Source of the DNA: Rhodanobacter sp. FW102-FHT14D07
GTDB lineage: Bacteria > Pseudomonadota > Gammaproteobacteria > Xanthomonadales > Rhodanobacteraceae
Assembly: GCF_043950725.1 (NCBI RefSeq)
Contig: NZ_CP170721.1
Location: forward strand, 613,636 to 677,635
Direction: 5' to 3'
Length of the DNA: 64,000 nt
The notes beneath the pieces were generated by a model. It ran no database searches. It had not been told where the DNA came from and worked only from the letters and a program-made list of their open reading frames with translations. Shown here one piece after another: positions 16,733 to 55,039 of this stretch. The number at the start of each line of letters is the position of its first letter. The first letter of the stretch is position 1. The translations under genes and the position numbers were made by a program.

Positions 16733-16809
16733 CGGGGCGTAGCGCAGCCTGGTAGCGCATCTGCCTGGGGGGCAGAGGGTCGTCGGTTCGAATCCGGCCG
16801 CCCCGACCA
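16733..16809 (+). tRNA. tRNA-Pro (anticodon GGG)
   Basis: Hand-folded cloverleaf: acceptor CGGGGCG/CGCCCCG, D-arm GCGC-AGCCTGGTA-GCGC, anticodon arm TCTGC-CTGGGGG-GCAGA (34-36 = GGG), T-arm GTCGG-TTCGAAT-CCGGC, encoded CCA. A TAGAAT -10-like box lies at 16716-16721. Confidence 0.85.
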
Positions 16810-28369: not shown

Positions 28370-29602
28370 ATGACCAATCTGCGGGAGCCTGGCGTCATGC
28401 ACCAGCGCATCGTCCAGTTTCTGACCCCGGCGCCGGACTCCGCGGCGGCGCGCAGCATGCATCGCGGCAAATCGCCGTGGGTGGATGCTGTGCACCTGTT
28501 GTGGTCGGCGTGGATCTTCGTCGTGCCGGTGTGGAACAACGACGGCTGGAGCACGCGCTGGGTCGTCACCACTCTGGTTAGCTATCCGCTGTTCCTGCTG
28601 CTGTATTACCGGTGCATCGCGGGGCCGCGTGCGCAGGTCCGCGCCGGCGCCCTCGCGTTGGTGCTGCTGAGCATGTCGTTGCTGCCCTGGTATCCCAGCG
28701 GGCTGACCTATTTCATCTATGGCTGCGTGATGCTCTGCACCAGCGTGGGTCGTTTCCGCGCCTATCTCGGCTGGCTGGCCGGGCTCAATGTGGTGTTGCT
28801 GGCCGAGACCTCGCTGCTCGGTTACCCATGGCAGGCCGTGTTCTCCATCCCGCTGACCTCGTTCATCATCGGCATCATCATCAAGGCCGAGCATGGCAGC
28901 GAGGAGAAGGACGCGCAGCTGCGGCTCTCGCACGAAGAAGTGCGTCGGCTGGCGGCCACTGCCGAGCGCGAGCGCATCGGCCGCGACCTGCACGATCTGC
29001 TGGGCCATACCCTGTCGCTGATCACGCTGAAGCTGGAGTTGTCACGCAAGCTGTTCGACCGGGACCATGCGGCGGCCAGGCGCGAAGTGGAAGAGGCGGA
29101 GAAGGTGGCGCGTCACGCGCTTGCCGAAGTGCGCAGTGCGGTCAGCGGCATCCACGCCACCGACCTGGCGGCCGAGCTGGCCTCGGCGCGGCTGCTGCTG
29201 GAATCCTCCGGGGTGTGCATGGAATACGCGGCACCGCCGACCGACTTGCCGCAAGACACCGAACGCAGCCTCTCGCTGATCCTGCGCGAGGCGGCGACCA
29301 ATATCGCGCGCCACGCGGCGGCAAGTTGCGCGAACGTCGATTTCGTGCGCGAGCCTGCCAGCGTGCGCATGAGTATCCGTGACAACGGCCGCGGCGGCAT
29401 CGACGGCGCCGGCAACGGCCTGCGCGGCATGCGCGAGCGCGTGCGCTCGCTGGGCGGCACGCTGGAGATCAGCTCGCCGTTGCGCGGCGGCACGACCATG
29501 CTGGTCAGCGCGCCGCTGCCGGTGCTGCGACTGGTCGCCATGCCAGCGACCGCTGCCGGCGGCGTGGCGCCCGCGGCGCAGGGTGGGCATTCGGCCGCCT
29601 GA
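28370..29602 (+). CDS. Multi-pass membrane sensor histidine kinase, HisKA_3 (NarX/DesK/LiaS-type)
   Basis: N-terminal roughly 190 aa with five transmembrane helices. An H-box RIGRDLHDLLGHTLSLITLKLE (HisKA_3) and a HATPase_c domain (NIARHAAAS...DNGRGG...GLRGMRERV) follow. Confidence 0.85.
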   Translation: MTNLREPGVMHQRIVQFLTPAPDSAAARSMHRGKSPWVDAVHLLWSAWIFVVPVWNNDGWSTRWVVTTLVSYPLFLLLYYRCIAGPRAQVRAGALALVLLSMSLLPWYPSGLTYFIYGCVMLCTSVGRFRAYLGWLAGLNVVLLAETSLLGYPWQAVFSIPLTSFIIGIIIKAEHGSEEKDAQLRLSHEEVRRLAATAERERIGRDLHDLLGHTLSLITLKLELSRKLFDRDHAAARREVEEAEKVARHALAEVRSAVSGIHATDLAAELASARLLLESSGVCMEYAAPPTDLPQDTERSLSLILREAATNIARHAAASCANVDFVREPASVRMSIRDNGRGGIDGAGNGLRGMRERVRSLGGTLEISSPLRGGTTMLVSAPLPVLRLVAMPATAAGGVAPAAQGGHSAA

Positions 29603-29665
29603 CGATCGAAGCCATCACGATGGAGCTTTTCCAATGCCGCTGAAGCAATCGCCACGAGGCGCCGC

Positions 29666-30271
29666 ATGATCCGCGTGCTGCTGGCCGAGGACCAGGCGAT
29701 GGTGCGCGGCGCACTGTCGGCGCTGCTGAGCCTGGAGCCGGACATGGAGGTGCTCGGCTCCGCACCCGACGGCGAGGCGGCGTGGCGGGAGATGCAGCGC
29801 CTGAAGCCCGATGTGCTGGTCACCGATATCGAGATGCCCGGCCTCACCGGGCTGGAGCTGGCCCAGCGCATCCAGCGTCACGACGAGCTGCCGGTGAAGG
29901 TCATCATCGTCACCACCTTCGCCCGCCCGGGTTTCCTGCGTCGCGCGCTGGATGCCGGCGTGTCGGGCTACCTGCTGAAGGACGCTCCCGCCGAGAACCT
30001 CGCCGAGGCGTTGCGCACCGTACACCGCGGTGGTCGTGCGATCGACCCGCAGCTGGCGCTGGAAGCCTGGTCCGAAGCCGACCCGCTGAACGATCGCGAA
30101 CGCCAGGTGCTGCGCCTCGCCGGCGAGGGCCAATCCGCCGGCGACATCGCCGCAAAACTCAACCTCTCGCACGGCACCGTGCGCAATTATCTGTCCGAAG
30201 CGATCGGCAAACTCGGCGTCGGCAACCGCATCGAGGCGTATCGGCTGGCGCGGCAAAAAGGCTGGTTGTAA
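29666..30271 (+). CDS. NarL/FixJ (LuxR-type) response regulator
   Basis: REC domain (MIRVLLAEDQAMVR...VLVTDIEMPGLTG) plus a LuxR HTH (LRLAGEGQSAGDIAAKLNLSHGTVRNYLSEAIGKLGV). Confidence 0.9.
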   Translation: MIRVLLAEDQAMVRGALSALLSLEPDMEVLGSAPDGEAAWREMQRLKPDVLVTDIEMPGLTGLELAQRIQRHDELPVKVIIVTTFARPGFLRRALDAGVSGYLLKDAPAENLAEALRTVHRGGRAIDPQLALEAWSEADPLNDRERQVLRLAGEGQSAGDIAAKLNLSHGTVRNYLSEAIGKLGVGNRIEAYRLARQKGWL

Positions 30272-30896
30272 GTTTTTCCGATATTCGATAAAAAATGCTT
30301 GCGCGTGGTTGTTAATAGGTGTAACGTCCGCAGCCCTCGCCTTTTGGCGACCATCAGATAAAAGAGTTTCCATGTCGTTCCGCATAACCCAGATGAGCAC
30401 ACCATGCACGTCGCAGTATTGCCGCGATGCAGGCCTGTTCATGCGCGGCGAATGGCTCGACTTGGCAATCGTCTGCCGATAATCGACTGATCCCTTTGCG
30501 GAGATCGGTCACCCCGATCTCCCGAGGCAACGCGAACGCCCTCGGGTCGCCAACCCCGGGGGCGTCTTGTTTTTGCCGTTCGCAGGGGATGCGCATGCAT
30601 CGAACAAGGTTTGCGGAATCCGTTTCGCCCTGAGGCATCCGGTCAGCCATGGCCGAGGCAGGGGCGCAGCTGCGAAGGCGCTTGCGCGCTGCGTCCCGGT
30701 GCTTCGGCGCGGGCTGTGCGAGAAACGGATCACCACGTATCGGGCAACCATGCCCGCACCTATTGCCGGTTGGTGACAGCCGGCAATCGGGAACATCGAA
30801 CCGACCGGCTCCAGCGGCATGGGCTCAAGCCCCATCCGGTGCGCGCGGCTTTGCCGGCGGCGTATGCCGGGGTCTGCCGGGCGGTGTTCCACAACG

Positions 30897-30968
30897 ACGA
30901 CGTTGGCTCAGCGGTAGAGCGGCAGGTTCGTTCCTGCAAACGCCGGTTCGATTCCGGCACGTCGGCCA
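30897..30968 (+). pseudogene. tRNA-like sequence 1: canonical D- and T-arms, 6-nt anticodon loop, weak acceptor stem; probable tRNA pseudogene/relic
   Basis: Hand fold: D-arm GCTC-AGCGGTA-GAGC, T-arm GCCGG-TTCGATT-CCGGC. The anticodon stem GCAGG/CCTGC encloses only TTCGTT. The acceptor pairs CGACGT/ACGTCG (6 bp, position 1:72 A-G) and ends GCCA. Not verified computationally. Confidence 0.35.
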
Positions 30969-31041
30969 CTGGATAGCTCAGAGGGGTAGAGCATCGGTCT
31001 TGTAAACCGAGTGTCGCGGGTTCGACTCCCGCTCCAAACCA
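30967..31041 (+). tRNA. tRNA-Thr(UGU)-like sequence 2 with intact D-, anticodon and T-arms but a poorly paired acceptor stem and no full CCA; possibly non-functional
   Basis: U8A9, D-arm GCTC-AGAGGGGTA-GAGC, anticodon arm TCGGT-CTTGTAA-ACCGA (34-36 = TGT), T-arm GCGGG-TTCGACT-CCCGC. The 5' strand CACTGGA and the 3' strand TCCAAAC pair over only 4 bp. Its 5' end overlaps the 3' end of tRNA-like 1 by 2 nt. Confidence 0.4.
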
Positions 31042-31438
31042 TGACCTGTCACGTCATGACCAGGAACGAAAGTTCCGACCAGGAAACGCCTCGCGCGGCG
31101 CCTGGCCTGCAAGCCACGGAGGGTTTGCGGATCAGGCAAGGCGGCGGTGGCGGGGCCGGGCCCACGTCCCGACAGCGGGCAAGCGGATATCGAAGCGATT
31201 GTCTTGCAGGCATTCGCCGGAATATCCGGTTCCCCGCCAAGGCACGTCGGCTTCGCCCCATTATCGTCAGGAGGCGTTTCCGCCTTATTCGCTTTAATCG
31301 GCGCATGACGTCGATTATCCCGCGAGGGAGGGGCTTTTGCGGCCCGATTATCTGCAATGTTAATGCGTCGTACCGATCCGGCGACGCAGTCGGCTTATCC
31401 GACGGATCGAAACAAGGATTGACGGAAGGAGTATCAAC

Positions 31439-32563
31439 ATGTTCTGGATCAAGCAAATCGTGATCGGCGACGGCGAGCGCGGCTTGCTGTATCGCAACCG
31501 TCGTTTCCAGCGCGTACTGCCGCCGGGCGTGTACCACTTTGTCGACCCGTGCAAGCGTATCGCGGCCAGCGTGCACAACCTGGCCAAGCCCGAGTACACC
31601 GGCGCCGACACTGACGTGCTGATGGCGCTGATGGATGGTGCGCTGGCCGAATGCTTCGACGTGGCCGACATCGGCACGCAGCAGGTTGGCCTGGTGCTCA
31701 AGAACGGCAAGCTGGAGGACGTGCTGGCACCGGGTACGCGCAAGCTCTACTGGAAGGGCCTGGTGCCGGTCGAGGTGCAGGCGGTGTCGCTGGCGGAAAC
31801 GCTGGAAGTCGATGCGCGCGTGGCCAGCCGACTGCGCCAGCTGGGCGTGCTCGGCAAGGTCGCGGTGACGGTGGACGTGCCGACGGAGTCGGCAGGCCTG
31901 CTGTTCATCGACGGCAAGCTGGTGCGTACGCTGGCACCGGGGGCCTGGGCGTTCTGGAATTTCCAGAAGAACGTGGCGGCCGAGGTGATCGAGCTGCGCG
32001 TGCAATCGCTGGAGGTGTCGGGCCAGGAACTGCTGACCCGCGACAAGGTGAGCCTGCGGGTGAACCTGGCCGCCAGCCTGCGCGTGACCGATCCGGTCGC
32101 CGCGCGCACCAAGGTGGTCAAGTACGGCGACTACGTCTATCGCGAGCTGCAATACGGCTTGCGCAAGGCGGTGTCCGGCAAGACGCTGGACGAGCTGCTG
32201 GGCGACAAGGCTTCGCTGGACGCGGACATCTTTGCCTACGTGCGCGGCCGTGTCGTTGAGCTGGGCGTGGAAGTGCTGGGCGTGGGCGTCAAGGACGTGA
32301 TCCTGCCGGGCGAGATGAAGGACATCCTGAACAGCGTGGTGCAGGCGGAGAAGGCGGCCCAGGCCAACGTGATCCGCCGGCGCGAGGAGTCGAACGCCAC
32401 CCGTTCGCTGCTCAACACCGCGCGGCTGATCGAGGAGAGCCCGGTGCTGATGCGTCTGAAGGAGCTGGAGGCTCTGGAGAAGGTCACCGAGAAGATCGAC
32501 AAGCTCACCGTGTTCGGCGGCCTGGACGGCGTGCTGAACCAGTTGGTGAGCCTCAAGCAGTAA
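31439..32563 (+). CDS. SPFH/Band-7 (stomatin/HflKC-like) domain protein with an unusual N-terminal region that triplicates the SPFH entry beta-hairpin motif
   Basis: The C-terminal half (VSLRVNLAASLRVTDPVAARTKVVKYGDYVYRELQYGLRKAVSGKTLDELLGDKASLDADIF...VKDVILPGEMKDILNSVVQAEKAAQANVIRRREESNATRSL) is a classical SPFH fold. The N-terminal 190 aa carry three repeats of the pattern GLL/LVL...G+...LxPG...(F/Y)W (ERGLLYRNRRFQRVLPPGVYHF; QVGLVLKNGKLEDVLAPGTRKLYW; SAGLLFIDGKLVRTLAPGAWAFW). No clear transmembrane helix. Confidence 0.8.
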   Translation: MFWIKQIVIGDGERGLLYRNRRFQRVLPPGVYHFVDPCKRIAASVHNLAKPEYTGADTDVLMALMDGALAECFDVADIGTQQVGLVLKNGKLEDVLAPGTRKLYWKGLVPVEVQAVSLAETLEVDARVASRLRQLGVLGKVAVTVDVPTESAGLLFIDGKLVRTLAPGAWAFWNFQKNVAAEVIELRVQSLEVSGQELLTRDKVSLRVNLAASLRVTDPVAARTKVVKYGDYVYRELQYGLRKAVSGKTLDELLGDKASLDADIFAYVRGRVVELGVEVLGVGVKDVILPGEMKDILNSVVQAEKAAQANVIRRREESNATRSLLNTARLIEESPVLMRLKELEALEKVTEKIDKLTVFGGLDGVLNQLVSLKQ

Positions 32564-32617: not shown

Positions 32618-33838
32618 ATGAGCAACCAACAGTACGAGTTTCTGCATGCCGAAGGCAGCGCCACGCCGATCAAGGGCTGGGTGCATGGCGTGCCGCTGGA
32701 AGATGCCGCGAGGCAGCAGCTGCGCAACATCGCCATGCTGCCGTTTGTCGGCCCGTGGGTCGCGGTGATGCCCGACGTGCACCTGGGCAAGGGCGCGACG
32801 GTCGGTTCAGTCGTGCCCACGCGGGGCGCGGTCATCCCGGCTGCGGTCGGCGTGGACATCGGCTGCGGCATGGCCGCGGTACGCACCACGCTGCGCGCCA
32901 GCGACCTGCCGGACAACCTGGCCCCGCTGCGTTCCAGCATCGAGCGCGGCGTGCCGGTCGGCAACGGCCGTGGTGGCGACCATCACAAGCTGCCGGACAG
33001 CATTGAGACGCAACTGGCGCAATCCGGGCTGGTCGCGCGGCTGGAAGCAATCAAGGCGAAGCATCGCAAGATCCGCACCGACAAGCTGGACCGGCAGATC
33101 GGCACGCTGGGCGGTGGTAACCACTTCATCGAGGTCTGCCTCGACGAATCGGACGCCGTGTGGGTGATGTTGCACTCGGGTTCGCGCGGCACCGGCAACC
33201 TGATTGGCAGCTACTTCATCGAGCGGGCGCGCGAGGAGCTGGCGCAGCGCGTGCTGGGTTTCGACCTGCTGGACAGAGACCTGGCCTTCTTCATGGAAGG
33301 CGAAGCATTGTTCGATGACTACGTGGAAGCGGTGTCCTGGGCGCAGGACTACGCCCAGGCCAACCGCGAGGCGATGATGGCGCGGGTGTTGGCCGAGATG
33401 CGCCACCGGCTGCCGAAGTTCCAGTTGGAAAAGCTGGCGGTGAACTGCCACCACAACTACGTGCAGAAGGAAACGCACGGTGGCGAGGACTTGCTGGTGA
33501 CCCGCAAGGGTGCGGTGAGCGCGCGGGTCGGCGAGCTGGGCATCATCCCGGGCAGCATGGGTACGTGCAGCTACATCGTGCGTGGCAAGGGCAATCCGGA
33601 AAGTTTCCACAGCTGCAGCCACGGCGCGGGCCGGGTGATGAGCCGTACCGCGGCGCGCCAGCGGATCACGCTGGCGCAGCATCGGGAGGCCACCGCCCAT
33701 GTCGAATGCCGCAAGGACGCGGCGGTGATCGACGAATCGCCGGCGGCGTACAAGTCGATCGACGCGGTTATGGCGGCGCAGTCCGACCTGGTCGACGTGG
33801 TGCACACGCTGCGCCAGGTGCTGTGCGTGAAGGGATGA
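32618..33838 (+). CDS. rtcB: RtcB-family 3'-phosphate/5'-hydroxyl RNA ligase
   Basis: 406 aa with the full set of RtcB signatures: GGGNHFIEV, HSGSRGTG, CHHNY, SCSHGAGRVMSR. It lies 55 nt downstream of the SPFH gene on the same strand. No rtcA, rtcR or archease gene is present in the window. Confidence 0.9.
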   Translation: MSNQQYEFLHAEGSATPIKGWVHGVPLEDAARQQLRNIAMLPFVGPWVAVMPDVHLGKGATVGSVVPTRGAVIPAAVGVDIGCGMAAVRTTLRASDLPDNLAPLRSSIERGVPVGNGRGGDHHKLPDSIETQLAQSGLVARLEAIKAKHRKIRTDKLDRQIGTLGGGNHFIEVCLDESDAVWVMLHSGSRGTGNLIGSYFIERAREELAQRVLGFDLLDRDLAFFMEGEALFDDYVEAVSWAQDYAQANREAMMARVLAEMRHRLPKFQLEKLAVNCHHNYVQKETHGGEDLLVTRKGAVSARVGELGIIPGSMGTCSYIVRGKGNPESFHSCSHGAGRVMSRTAARQRITLAQHREATAHVECRKDAAVIDESPAAYKSIDAVMAAQSDLVDVVHTLRQVLCVKG

Positions 33839-33919
33839 AGCCGGCGCCGCTCCGCGAGGGGCGGCGTCTTTTCGCGCGTGCCCCGGCGCGCCGGCTGCGG
33901 GATAATGTCCCGTTTTCCG

Positions 33920-36235
<2,316 letters not shown>

Positions 36236-54964: not shown

Positions 54965-55039
54965 GGGCGGTTAGCTCAGCGGTAGAGCACTACCTTGACA
55001 TGGTAGGGGTCACAAGTTCGATCCTTGTACCGCCCACCA
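54965..55039 (+). tRNA. tRNA-Val (anticodon GAC); integration site of the downstream prophage
   Basis: Hand fold: acceptor GGGCGGT/ACCGCCC, D-arm GCTC-AGCGGTA-GAGC, anticodon arm CTACC-TTGACAT-GGTAG (34-36 = GAC), T-arm ACAAG-TTCGATC-CTTGT, discriminator A, encoded CCA. The integrase gene starts 26 nt downstream. Confidence 0.9.

Follow-up and report, generated by a model that had tools for sequence, protein, structure and literature searches.

The subject of this report is a pair of tandem tRNA-like sequences, and what surrounds them, in Rhodanobacter sp. FW102-FHT14D07 (assembly GCF_043950725.1, contig NZ_CP170721.1, positions 613,636 to 677,635 of the forward strand); this stretch of 64,000 nucleotides (nt), analysed at its full length, is referred to below as the window. 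The interpretation towards which we lean, with moderate confidence, is that the two units are non-decoding tRNA-mimic modules of a larger RNA of ~490 nt that would act as partner of a cytoplasmic SPFH/Band-7 protein, and in this lineage also of the RNA ligase RtcB, in the capacity of a bait or platform. By its published description the class to which this RNA is best assigned is that of b7a-tRNA (band-7-associated tRNA), whose existence was predicted by Burroughs and Aravind (2016), as cited in bioRxiv 10.1101/312249. The elements on which the argument turns are the following, the Band_7 gene and then RtcB being found ~400 nt 3' of the tandem units on the same strand, so that the location directly upstream of an SPFH-rtcB pair, given by a first-pass annotation of this DNA, is confirmed:

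30897-30968, plus strand: tRNA-like unit 1; full-length match to the Rfam tRNA model (51.3 bits), with covariation of the cloverleaf
30970-31036, plus strand: tRNA-like unit 2; match to the same model (54.0 bits) over model positions 4-67 only
31439-32563, plus strand: SPFH/Band-7 ("slipin") gene (Pfam Band_7, 5.7e-28), the constant partner of the RNA
32618-33838, plus strand: rtcB, encoding a 3'-phosphate/5'-OH RNA ligase (Pfam RtcB, 1.4e-123), a frequent third component

The scores of both units lie well above the gathering score of the Rfam tRNA family (RF00005), which is 29, and the corresponding E values (~1e-8 to 1e-10) are far beyond chance. The acceptor of unit 1 consists of 6 base pairs (bp) (CGACGU/ACGUCG, 30898-903 with 30959-964), A30897 and G30965 facing each other unpaired and CCA following at 30966-968; its D arm (GCUC-AGCGGUA-GAGC) and T arm (GCCGG-UUCGAUU-CCGGC) are both textbook and its anticodon arm (GCAGG-UUCGUU-CCUGC) has a loop of 6 nt. 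Unit 2 possesses U8 and A9, canonical D and T arms and a perfect anticodon arm (UCGGU-CUUGUAA-ACCGA) with a 7-nt loop and the triplet UGU, its acceptor being limited to 4 bp (UGGA/UCCA) and a CCA end being absent. All these traits, including the textbook D and T arms of both units, the 6-bp acceptor followed by GCCA in unit 1 and the U8A9 and incomplete acceptor of unit 2, had been read correctly in the first-pass annotation. The overlap that it described between the CCA of unit 1 and the 5' end of unit 2 does not exist, since the real 4-bp acceptor leaves one base (C30969) between the units. ARAGORN, the check proposed there, returns "tRNA-???" with a 2-nt anticodon for unit 1 and misses unit 2, both of which are matched by the Rfam model. 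The tRNA-Pro (16733-16809) and tRNA-Val (54965-55039) genes of the window are, as had been stated, canonical (62-68 bits).

The search with the SPFH protein yielded 80 loci from Lysobacterales (protein identity 73-92%) belonging to Rhodanobacter, Dyella, Lysobacter, Luteimonas, Pseudoxanthomonas, Thermomonas, Xanthomonas bonasiae and Nevskia; in nearly all of them ~260 nt around both units can be aligned upstream of the SPFH gene, the tandem being found upstream of the SPFH/Band-7 gene in ~78 of the 80 and being seen by ARAGORN almost everywhere. The alignments were MAFFT-based and the arms were parsed by alignment combined with per-segment folding. In the alignment of 79 sequences 91.8% of the cells of the eight cloverleaf helices are paired, compensatory changes occur in 26 of the 38 pairs and none of 500 shuffles performs equally well, the pairing falling to 34–51% when the partner strand is slid by 1–3 columns. 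The acceptor, D and T helices of unit 1 are paired in 96–99% of the cells, with compensatory changes, and all four helices of unit 2 in 99–100%; the poor score of the anticodon stem of unit 1 is a MAFFT artefact due to its variable length, and when folded singly this segment gives a 5–7-bp stem in essentially every species. These alignments show that selection preserves the D/T elbows (hence the L-shape), a short helix in the acceptor and, in the 7-nt anticodon-type loops, the U-turn geometry, and that the anticodon triplet, a 7-bp acceptor and the loop of unit 1 are free of it.

The 4-bp length of the unit 2 acceptor is invariant in Lysobacterales, UGGA/UCCA covarying to GAGA/UCUC in L070, L077 and L078. 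In 53 of the 79 species a tetraloop, mostly of the GNRA type (GCAA in 12, GAAA in 11, GCGA in 5, and others), caps the anticodon stem of unit 1, the UUCGUU of the window being one variant of this loop, and loops of 4–6 nt are found in both units across the loci. In most species unit 2 has a 7-nt loop with U33 (75%) and A37 (91%), 5- or 6-nt loops occurring in several; its triplet takes 33 different values in the 79 species and 13 of these triplets begin with A, a base that bacterial decoding tRNAs almost never use in the first anticodon position. Identity is 43% at positions 34-36 of unit 2 vs 95–98% in its T arm and acceptor, and within Rhodanobacter itself, in genomes whose SPFH proteins are 90–92% identical, the UGU of the window is replaced by GUU, GUC, CAU and UAU in four other genomes. 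The CCA is not conserved in Dyella. Thus, what characterizes a canonical tRNA, namely a 7-bp acceptor with discriminator and CCA and a 7-nt loop with an anticodon conserved among orthologues, is lacking here and, given 33 triplets of unit 2 in 79 species, neither unit can be a decoding tRNA, both being non-decoding tRNA mimics; the identity "Thr(UGU)" assigned in the first-pass annotation has no meaning, given a triplet that varies from species to species almost throughout.

Both units are, on the predicted fold, parts of a single structured RNA of ~490 nt (~30805-31296). The minimum free energy (MFE) of the stretch 30803-31292 has a z-score of -3.78 and the following elements, in addition to the units themselves, can be distinguished:

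30805-30876, plus strand: 5' three-way junction, with a closing helix formed by 30805-30812 and 30869-30876
30816-30837, plus strand: hairpin P0, which covaries (AUGGG/CCCAU, GCGGG/CCCGC, ACGGC/GCCGU, ACCGG/CCGGU)
30838-30868, plus strand: hairpin P1, nearly invariant (GGUGCGCGC...GCGUAUGCC), 98.6% paired, with 2 compensatory pairs
31040-31058, plus strand: free-standing anticodon-stem-loop mimic (CAUGAC-CUGUCAC-GUCAUG), with a 6-bp covarying stem and a 7-nt loop having a "U33" and an "A37"
31063-31076, plus strand: GNRA-tetraloop hairpin (GGAAC-GAAA-GUUCC); GC/AU swaps in the stem in 13-14 of 48 sequences, loop GAAA or GCAA
31082-31092, plus strand: 5' strand of a long-range helix (GGAAACGCCUC), 11 bp with 31271-31281
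31093-31270, plus strand: enclosed 3' domain (~180 nt), consisting of a ~50-nt hairpin followed by a long irregular helix of ~125 nt
31271-31281, plus strand: 3' strand of the long-range helix (GAGGCGUUUCC), pairing with 31082-31092
31282-31296, plus strand: U-rich tail (GCCUUAUUCGCUUUA), 3' of the long-range helix

The 5' junction is recovered by RNAalifold from 79 sequences, its closing helix displaying up to 6 pair types and the exact register of P1 varying between analyses; the same motif recurs in distant loci, including those that have only one tRNA-like unit. The best hairpin immediately following the proximal unit was compared across 139 loci: it has a 7-nt loop in 89, and in these the first position is C in 91%, the second U in 97%, the sixth A in 93% and the seventh C or A, with a variable middle triplet; by its sequence, the hairpin 31040-31058 therefore carries the signature of an anticodon loop (C-U-NNN-A-C/A) on a stem of its own. 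A long-distance element is the helix that closes the 3' domain, in which 97.4% of the cells are paired, 8 of 11 pairs show compensatory changes and none of 500 shuffles is as good, the slid controls reaching at most 61%. The MFE fold of the single sequence contains this helix too, and it recurs in distant metagenomic loci, where its strands, ~190–240 nt apart, covary (GGGGAUGCCCC/GGGGCAUCCUC, UUGGAAACACCCCGCG/CGUGGGGUGUUUCCAA). Within the 3' domain RNAalifold (35 sequences) finds many pairs with 4–6 standard pair types, in agreement with the single-sequence MFE fold, the inner coordinates being good to ~1–2 nt. In 35 species the 12 nt after the long-range helix contain on average 5.5 U against ~2.1 expected from composition, and a terminator scan gives a terminator-like match at 31271-31286; the U-rich tail is probably the 3' end or a leaky terminator of the RNA. 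A closing stem of the type found in Y RNAs (30841-30868 with 31087-31100) was also considered and discarded: 92% of the cells can pair, there are no compensatory changes, shuffles do as well and the local hairpin is preferred. A permissive scan of 30400-31500 with Rfam 15 returned only tRNA and a sub-threshold YrlA match, and no family for the ~490-nt RNA.

The association of the RNA with the SPFH gene extends well beyond the Lysobacterales. A search over one representative per 50%-identity cluster gave 4687 related proteins, among which full-length homologues (~375 residues) with identities down to ~33%, and an alignment of 15 diverse homologues, used as query, led to 80 metagenomic loci whose SPFH proteins have 35–41% identity. 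A tRNA-type T arm is present on the same strand 260–700 nt upstream of the SPFH gene in 56 of the 58 metagenomic loci that have at least 650 nt of upstream sequence, and in ~33 of these 58 two T arms lie 72–76 nt apart, so that the tandem is common, not universal. In the distant loci the acceptor of the proximal unit has 4–7 bp and covaries freely (GGAUA/UAUCC, ACAAGU/ACUUGU, GCAAGC/GCUUGC, UUCCA/UGGAA); its loop is of 7 nt in 45 of the 58, the commonest triplets being GAU (10) and CAU (9) with the rest scattered, and of 4–6 nt, sometimes GNRA, in the remaining 13. At least one proximal unit, that of L084, with 7 bp and ACCA, resembles an authentic tRNA-Ile, and the RNA class probably descends from a real tRNA that has degenerated to different degrees. 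An rtcB gene lies within 3.5 kb at 75 of the 80 loci from Lysobacterales, and 19 of 41 metagenomic loci with good flanks have one too; at loci without it, the neighbors are unrelated genes or an RlaP-type or other nucleotidyltransferase. In L092 (6118-6900), for instance, a locus without RtcB, a gene for RlaP (PF10127, a nucleotidyltransferase of an RNA-repair pathway) is found 3' of the SPFH gene. Since RtcB is absent at some loci, the constant pair consists of the RNA and the SPFH protein, whose gene is always 3' of the RNA on the same strand.

Three further observations concern these loci. First, a CCACCA(C) or ACCAC motif recurs directly 5' of the proximal unit in metagenomic loci, even where a first unit is not recognizable (L083, L090, L107, L121, L124, L131, L138 and L142 are among them), its equivalent in the window being GGCCAC (30963-30969); the motif resembles the CCACCA degradation tag. 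Second, 8–17 canonical tRNA genes with different anticodons are present immediately 5' of the RNA-SPFH unit in at least 14 loci (L077, at 30-2043, L092, L097, L102, L108, L111, L112, L114, L121, L124, L128, L137, L149 and L150), which suggests islands combining spare tRNAs with RNA repair. Third, an origin from phages was rejected, the SPFH protein having no matches in 50,697 phage records.

Information on how the RNA may be transcribed comes from three loci (L142, L125 and L162, the last from Citrobacter freundii) in which a sigma-54-type promoter, TGGCAC-N5-TGGCA, is located 5' of the RNA. The order in L142 is a divergent RtcR gene (Pfam RtcR and Sigma54_activat), the promoter, the 5' junction, two tRNA-like units, SPFH and RtcB; L125 has the same type of promoter 5' of its tRNA-like unit, and in L162 an annotated rtcR is accompanied by the promoter, a reduced structured leader with a T-arm-like hairpin, slipin and a nucleotidyltransferase gene. 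The Rfam tRNA model does not match the reduced leader of C. freundii, which has only the T-arm-like hairpin. In E. coli STEC639 (L161, 3969-4497) and in C. freundii (L162, 4047-4494) the slipin homologue, with 44% identity, is followed by a nucleotidyltransferase instead of rtcB. In systems of the RtcR type the RNA would be the first product of a damage-induced transcript, because it lies behind the sigma-54 promoter; it is known that damaged tRNAs activate RtcR (PMC7790460), and the Y RNAs of Salmonella are located inside the rsr-yrlBA-rtcBA operon (bioRxiv 10.1101/312249), a layout parallel to the RNA-first arrangement. No RtcR was found near the Lysobacterales loci, including that of the window, and the strict sigma-54 pattern is absent from all of them; the block 30781-30798 of the window is similar to such a promoter and was rejected, the GG-to-GC spacing being one base short and the GC missing. 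A sigma-70 scan of the window found nothing.

As to the protein, no hydrophobic or membrane segment is evident upon inspection of its sequence. Residues 1-145 consist of repeated copies of the beta-hairpin with which the Band_7 profile begins, and no solved structure was matched by sequence to the N-terminal 148 residues. The AlphaFold (AF2) model, with a predicted local distance difference test (pLDDT) score of 72, consists of N-terminal beta modules, an SPFH core and long C-terminal helices, and Foldseek matches it, including the wall helix, to the cage-forming stomatin, HflK/C, prohibitin, QmcA, erlin and flotillin. It is reasonable to suppose that the protein forms a soluble cage or ring.

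The most likely role of the RNA, whose mechanism we infer from these data, is that of a tRNA-mimic RNA subunit, bait or cofactor of an SPFH-RtcB module dealing with RNA damage. The RNA would be transcribed first and would end, at least in part, at the closing helix and U-tract, read-through past the latter giving the SPFH-rtcB mRNA. It would then fold into a particle exposing two tRNA-shaped bodies and an extra anticodon-stem-loop, to which the SPFH oligomer would bind much as Ro binds Y RNA. As a tRNA-shaped bait or platform the RNA might either capture enzymes that attack the anticodon loops of tRNAs or position RtcB on broken tRNA-like substrates having 2',3'-cyclic-phosphate and 5'-OH ends. 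In this respect the suggestion of the first-pass annotation that the units could be regulatory RNAs derived from tRNAs, or substrates in need of repair, with a link to SPFH-rtcB, pointed in the right direction, with the specification that they are non-decoding mimics genetically coupled to SPFH/Band-7 and often to RtcB.

Several points weigh against this interpretation. We infer the binding of RNA by the SPFH protein only from gene linkage, and b7a-tRNA is referred to as unvalidated in bioRxiv 10.1101/312249 (2018). In about half of the distant loci with good flanks RtcB is missing from the surrounding 3.5 kb, so that the ligase cannot be obligatory. In some species no U-tract follows the closing helix, which leaves a separate transcript uncertain. 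Neutral drift would account for the free triplets just as well as a role as bait. Finally, the aligned sequences are phylogenetically related and shuffle controls overstate significance because of this common descent; the slid-partner controls, in which relatedness is retained, collapse as well.

A bolder extension of the same idea, which we regard as doubtful, is that b7a-tRNA represents the tip of a widespread and undescribed class of "ornate" RNAs of ~400–500 nt, having one or two tRNA bodies and a separate anticodon-stem-loop, which would be packaged by a membrane-free SPFH cage as a vault-like ribonucleoprotein. Such particles could be baits and sensors for ribotoxins that attack anticodon loops, with triplets tracking the toxins of each lineage, and the damage could be handed over to RtcB or to a nucleotidyltransferase, many genomes adding flanking arrays of spare tRNAs.

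Among the alternatives, the one that survives best, although it appears unlikely, is that the RNA is nothing more than the untranslated 5' part of the SPFH-rtcB mRNA, acting in cis as a leader or damage sensor. Its modules resembling tRNAs and anticodon loops would be cut by tRNA-cutting ribotoxins or processed by RNase P/RNase Z, and the cut, or an alternative pairing at the closing helix and U-tract, would switch on the repair genes, the leader thus replacing RtcR in lineages that lack it. The constant location of the RNA on the same strand, 260–700 nt upstream of the SPFH gene, and its insertion between the sigma-54 promoter and this gene in L142, L125 and L162 are in line with such a function, as are the lack of RtcR near the Lysobacterales loci, the resemblance of the closing helix and U-tract to a terminator or attenuator and the existence of a further conserved hairpin (31372-31410) just 5' of the ribosome-binding site (RBS). 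On the other hand, no covarying anti-terminator pairing was found, the one long-range alternative that was tested being devoid of compensatory support; moreover, an RNA of 490 nt with three-way junctions and an ornate 3' domain far exceeds the needs of a switch, and it persists in RtcR-regulated loci where a sensor is already present. A function in cis is not exclusive of that of a partner RNA.

A second alternative, that the T arm of unit 1 and the D arm of unit 2 constitute the permuted tRNA-like domain of a YrlA homologue working with Ro/Rsr, is very improbable. It originates from a weak Rfam match (30910-31021) joining exactly these two arms and gains some appeal from the fact that YrlA is also encoded beside rtcB and that functional redundancy with b7a-tRNA has been proposed (bioRxiv 10.1101/312249); however, the score is 21.1 bits vs a gathering score of 69, which effectively refutes membership, covariation supports a complete cloverleaf for each unit separately, a Ro-binding stem is lacking and the pairing between the 5' and 3' conserved blocks does not covary, and Rsr is not among the neighbors, which are a kinase, a regulator, SPFH, RtcB, QueA and Tgt.

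Still less credit can be given to the premise, put forward in the first-pass annotation, that the units are relics, either tRNA genes in decay or a scar left where some element inserted into a tRNA gene. The departures of the acceptors and of the loop length from the canonical form, the tRNA arrays beside related loci, and GAU and CAU being the commonest triplets in distant loci together with the tRNA-Ile-like unit of L084, which suggest descent from a real tRNA, would suit this origin, but position, strand and structure are kept across the Lysobacterales and in distant metagenomic loci, every existing helix is under purifying selection with compensatory changes (in 26 of 38 pairs), the synteny with SPFH holds across a phyla-level divergence (35–41% SPFH identity), the "defects" themselves, short acceptor and non-7-nt loop, are conserved and covary, and neither repeats nor an integrase were seen beside the locus. 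Decay is thus refuted as the present state, and descent from a tRNA remains likely. Least tenable of all is the view that the units are functional, unusual decoding tRNAs, such as suppressors or frameshifters with a 6-nt loop, since the high scores with the tRNA model, the encoded CCA of unit 1 and the canonical anticodon loop of unit 2 are outweighed by triplets that change between close relatives having bodies at least 95% identical, by the frequency of A34 triplets, by the 4-bp acceptor, by the tetraloops that replace the anticodon loop in most species and by the lack of conservation of CCA in Dyella.

The remaining features of the locus can be dealt with briefly. Downstream of rtcB are found:

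33878-34966, plus strand: QueA gene, downstream of rtcB
ending at 36225, plus strand: Tgt gene, after QueA

These queuosine tRNA-modification genes, queA and tgt, occupy 33878-36225 directly 3' of rtcB on the plus strand. A functional link with the RNA, suggested by the recognition of U-G-U anticodon loops by queuosine enzymes and by the CUGUCAC loop of the extra hairpin, was considered and rejected, since only 12 of 75 loci from Lysobacterales, and no metagenomic locus, show the adjacency, which appears to be incidental local synteny. Just 5' of the RNA (28370-30271, plus strand) there are genes for a HisKA_3 histidine kinase and a LuxR/NarL-type response regulator, the latter 91–94% identical among the matches listed; a conserved upstream regulator was likewise rejected, this pair being common to only 19 of 80 related loci. 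The upstream two-component operon is closed by a terminator-like hairpin (30536-30565, plus strand; 11 bp, 9 of them G-C, followed by CUUGUUUUUG), which leaves ~240 nt before the 5' junction of the RNA. A perfect inverted repeat, ATTGCCGG-N10-CCGGCAAT, lies at 30762-30787 just 5' of this junction and its right arm overlaps a block conserved in the Lysobacterales, CGGCAAT..GGAACATCG (30781-30798); it could be an operator or promoter element. The above-mentioned hairpin CGAUCC...GGAUCG (31372-31410, plus strand), located shortly 5' of the SPFH RBS (AAGGAG) in most Lysobacterales loci, may control translation or mRNA stability. An Rfam t44 RNA (RF00127; 4571-4686, minus strand, 62.9 bits) is an ordinary known element, unrelated to the tandem.

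What are the targets of bacterial RtcB and how does the ligase find them? This is the question on which the locus bears and, together with its ~140 relatives, it offers an anatomy amenable to testing: boundaries, selected features, a free triplet, an anticodon-stem-loop mimic and a large closing domain. If the RNA were the partner of a soluble SPFH cage, the latter would be the first RNA-carrying member of a family otherwise known for organizing membranes, and the resulting particle would be a bacterial counterpart of the Ro-Y RNA and vault-vault RNA particles. There is also a practical consequence: across species the identities that ARAGORN gave to the units span almost all amino acids (tRNA-Thr, Met, Ile, Asn and others), and annotation pipelines accepting such identities would inflate and distort tRNA gene sets.

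Compared with known RNAs, the units share with the canonical bacterial tRNA (RF00005) the D arm, the T arm, the order of the cloverleaf and the elbow nucleotides, both scoring above the gathering threshold, and differ from it in their acceptors of 6 and 4 bp, in the 6-nt loop of unit 1 (a tetraloop in most relatives) and in the non-conserved anticodon. With the YrlA/Rsr system (RF02553; rsr-yrlBA-rtcBA of Salmonella) the window has in common a tRNA-mimicking module in or beside an RtcB operon, a ring- or cage-forming partner and, in some species, control by RtcR and sigma-54; unlike YrlA, it has neither a Ro protein nor a Ro-binding stem, its units are not circularly permuted and the partner is an SPFH and not a TROVE protein. 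The likeness to the vault is conceptual: in both cases a protein with beta-rich repeats at its N-terminus, followed by an SPFH-like domain and a long helix, would build a closed shell associated with small structured RNAs; in work attributed to Tanaka et al. (Science 2009) the shoulder domain of the major vault protein (MVP) is said to have a stomatin/SPFH-like fold. The 50 best Foldseek matches listed for the SPFH model do not include MVP, no homology of the RNAs is claimed and the parallel serves as a lead only.

The closest relative is b7a-tRNA, which is portrayed as a tRNA-like non-coding gene beside Band-7/SPFH and RtcB, precisely the layout of the window, and has been proposed to be the cognate RNA of an SPFH scaffold in RNA repair, bioRxiv 10.1101/312249 (2018) mentioning in addition a possible functional redundancy with YrlA. 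In the literature after 2016 on RNAs of SPFH-RtcB loci, only a 2026 note on a Pseudomonas aeruginosa SPFH gene in an rtc locus was found. The cloverleaf is seen by tRNA models, a Band-7/SPFH gene is the neighbor on the same strand and an association with RtcB or other RNA-repair functions exists, so that membership of the RNA of the window in this predicted class, which agrees with every testable trait of the description, is the best-supported assignment. Compared with b7a-tRNA as outlined in those accounts, the window would contribute two tandem non-canonical units embedded in an RNA of ~490 nt, together with an anticodon-stem-loop mimic and a 3' domain closed by a long-range helix.

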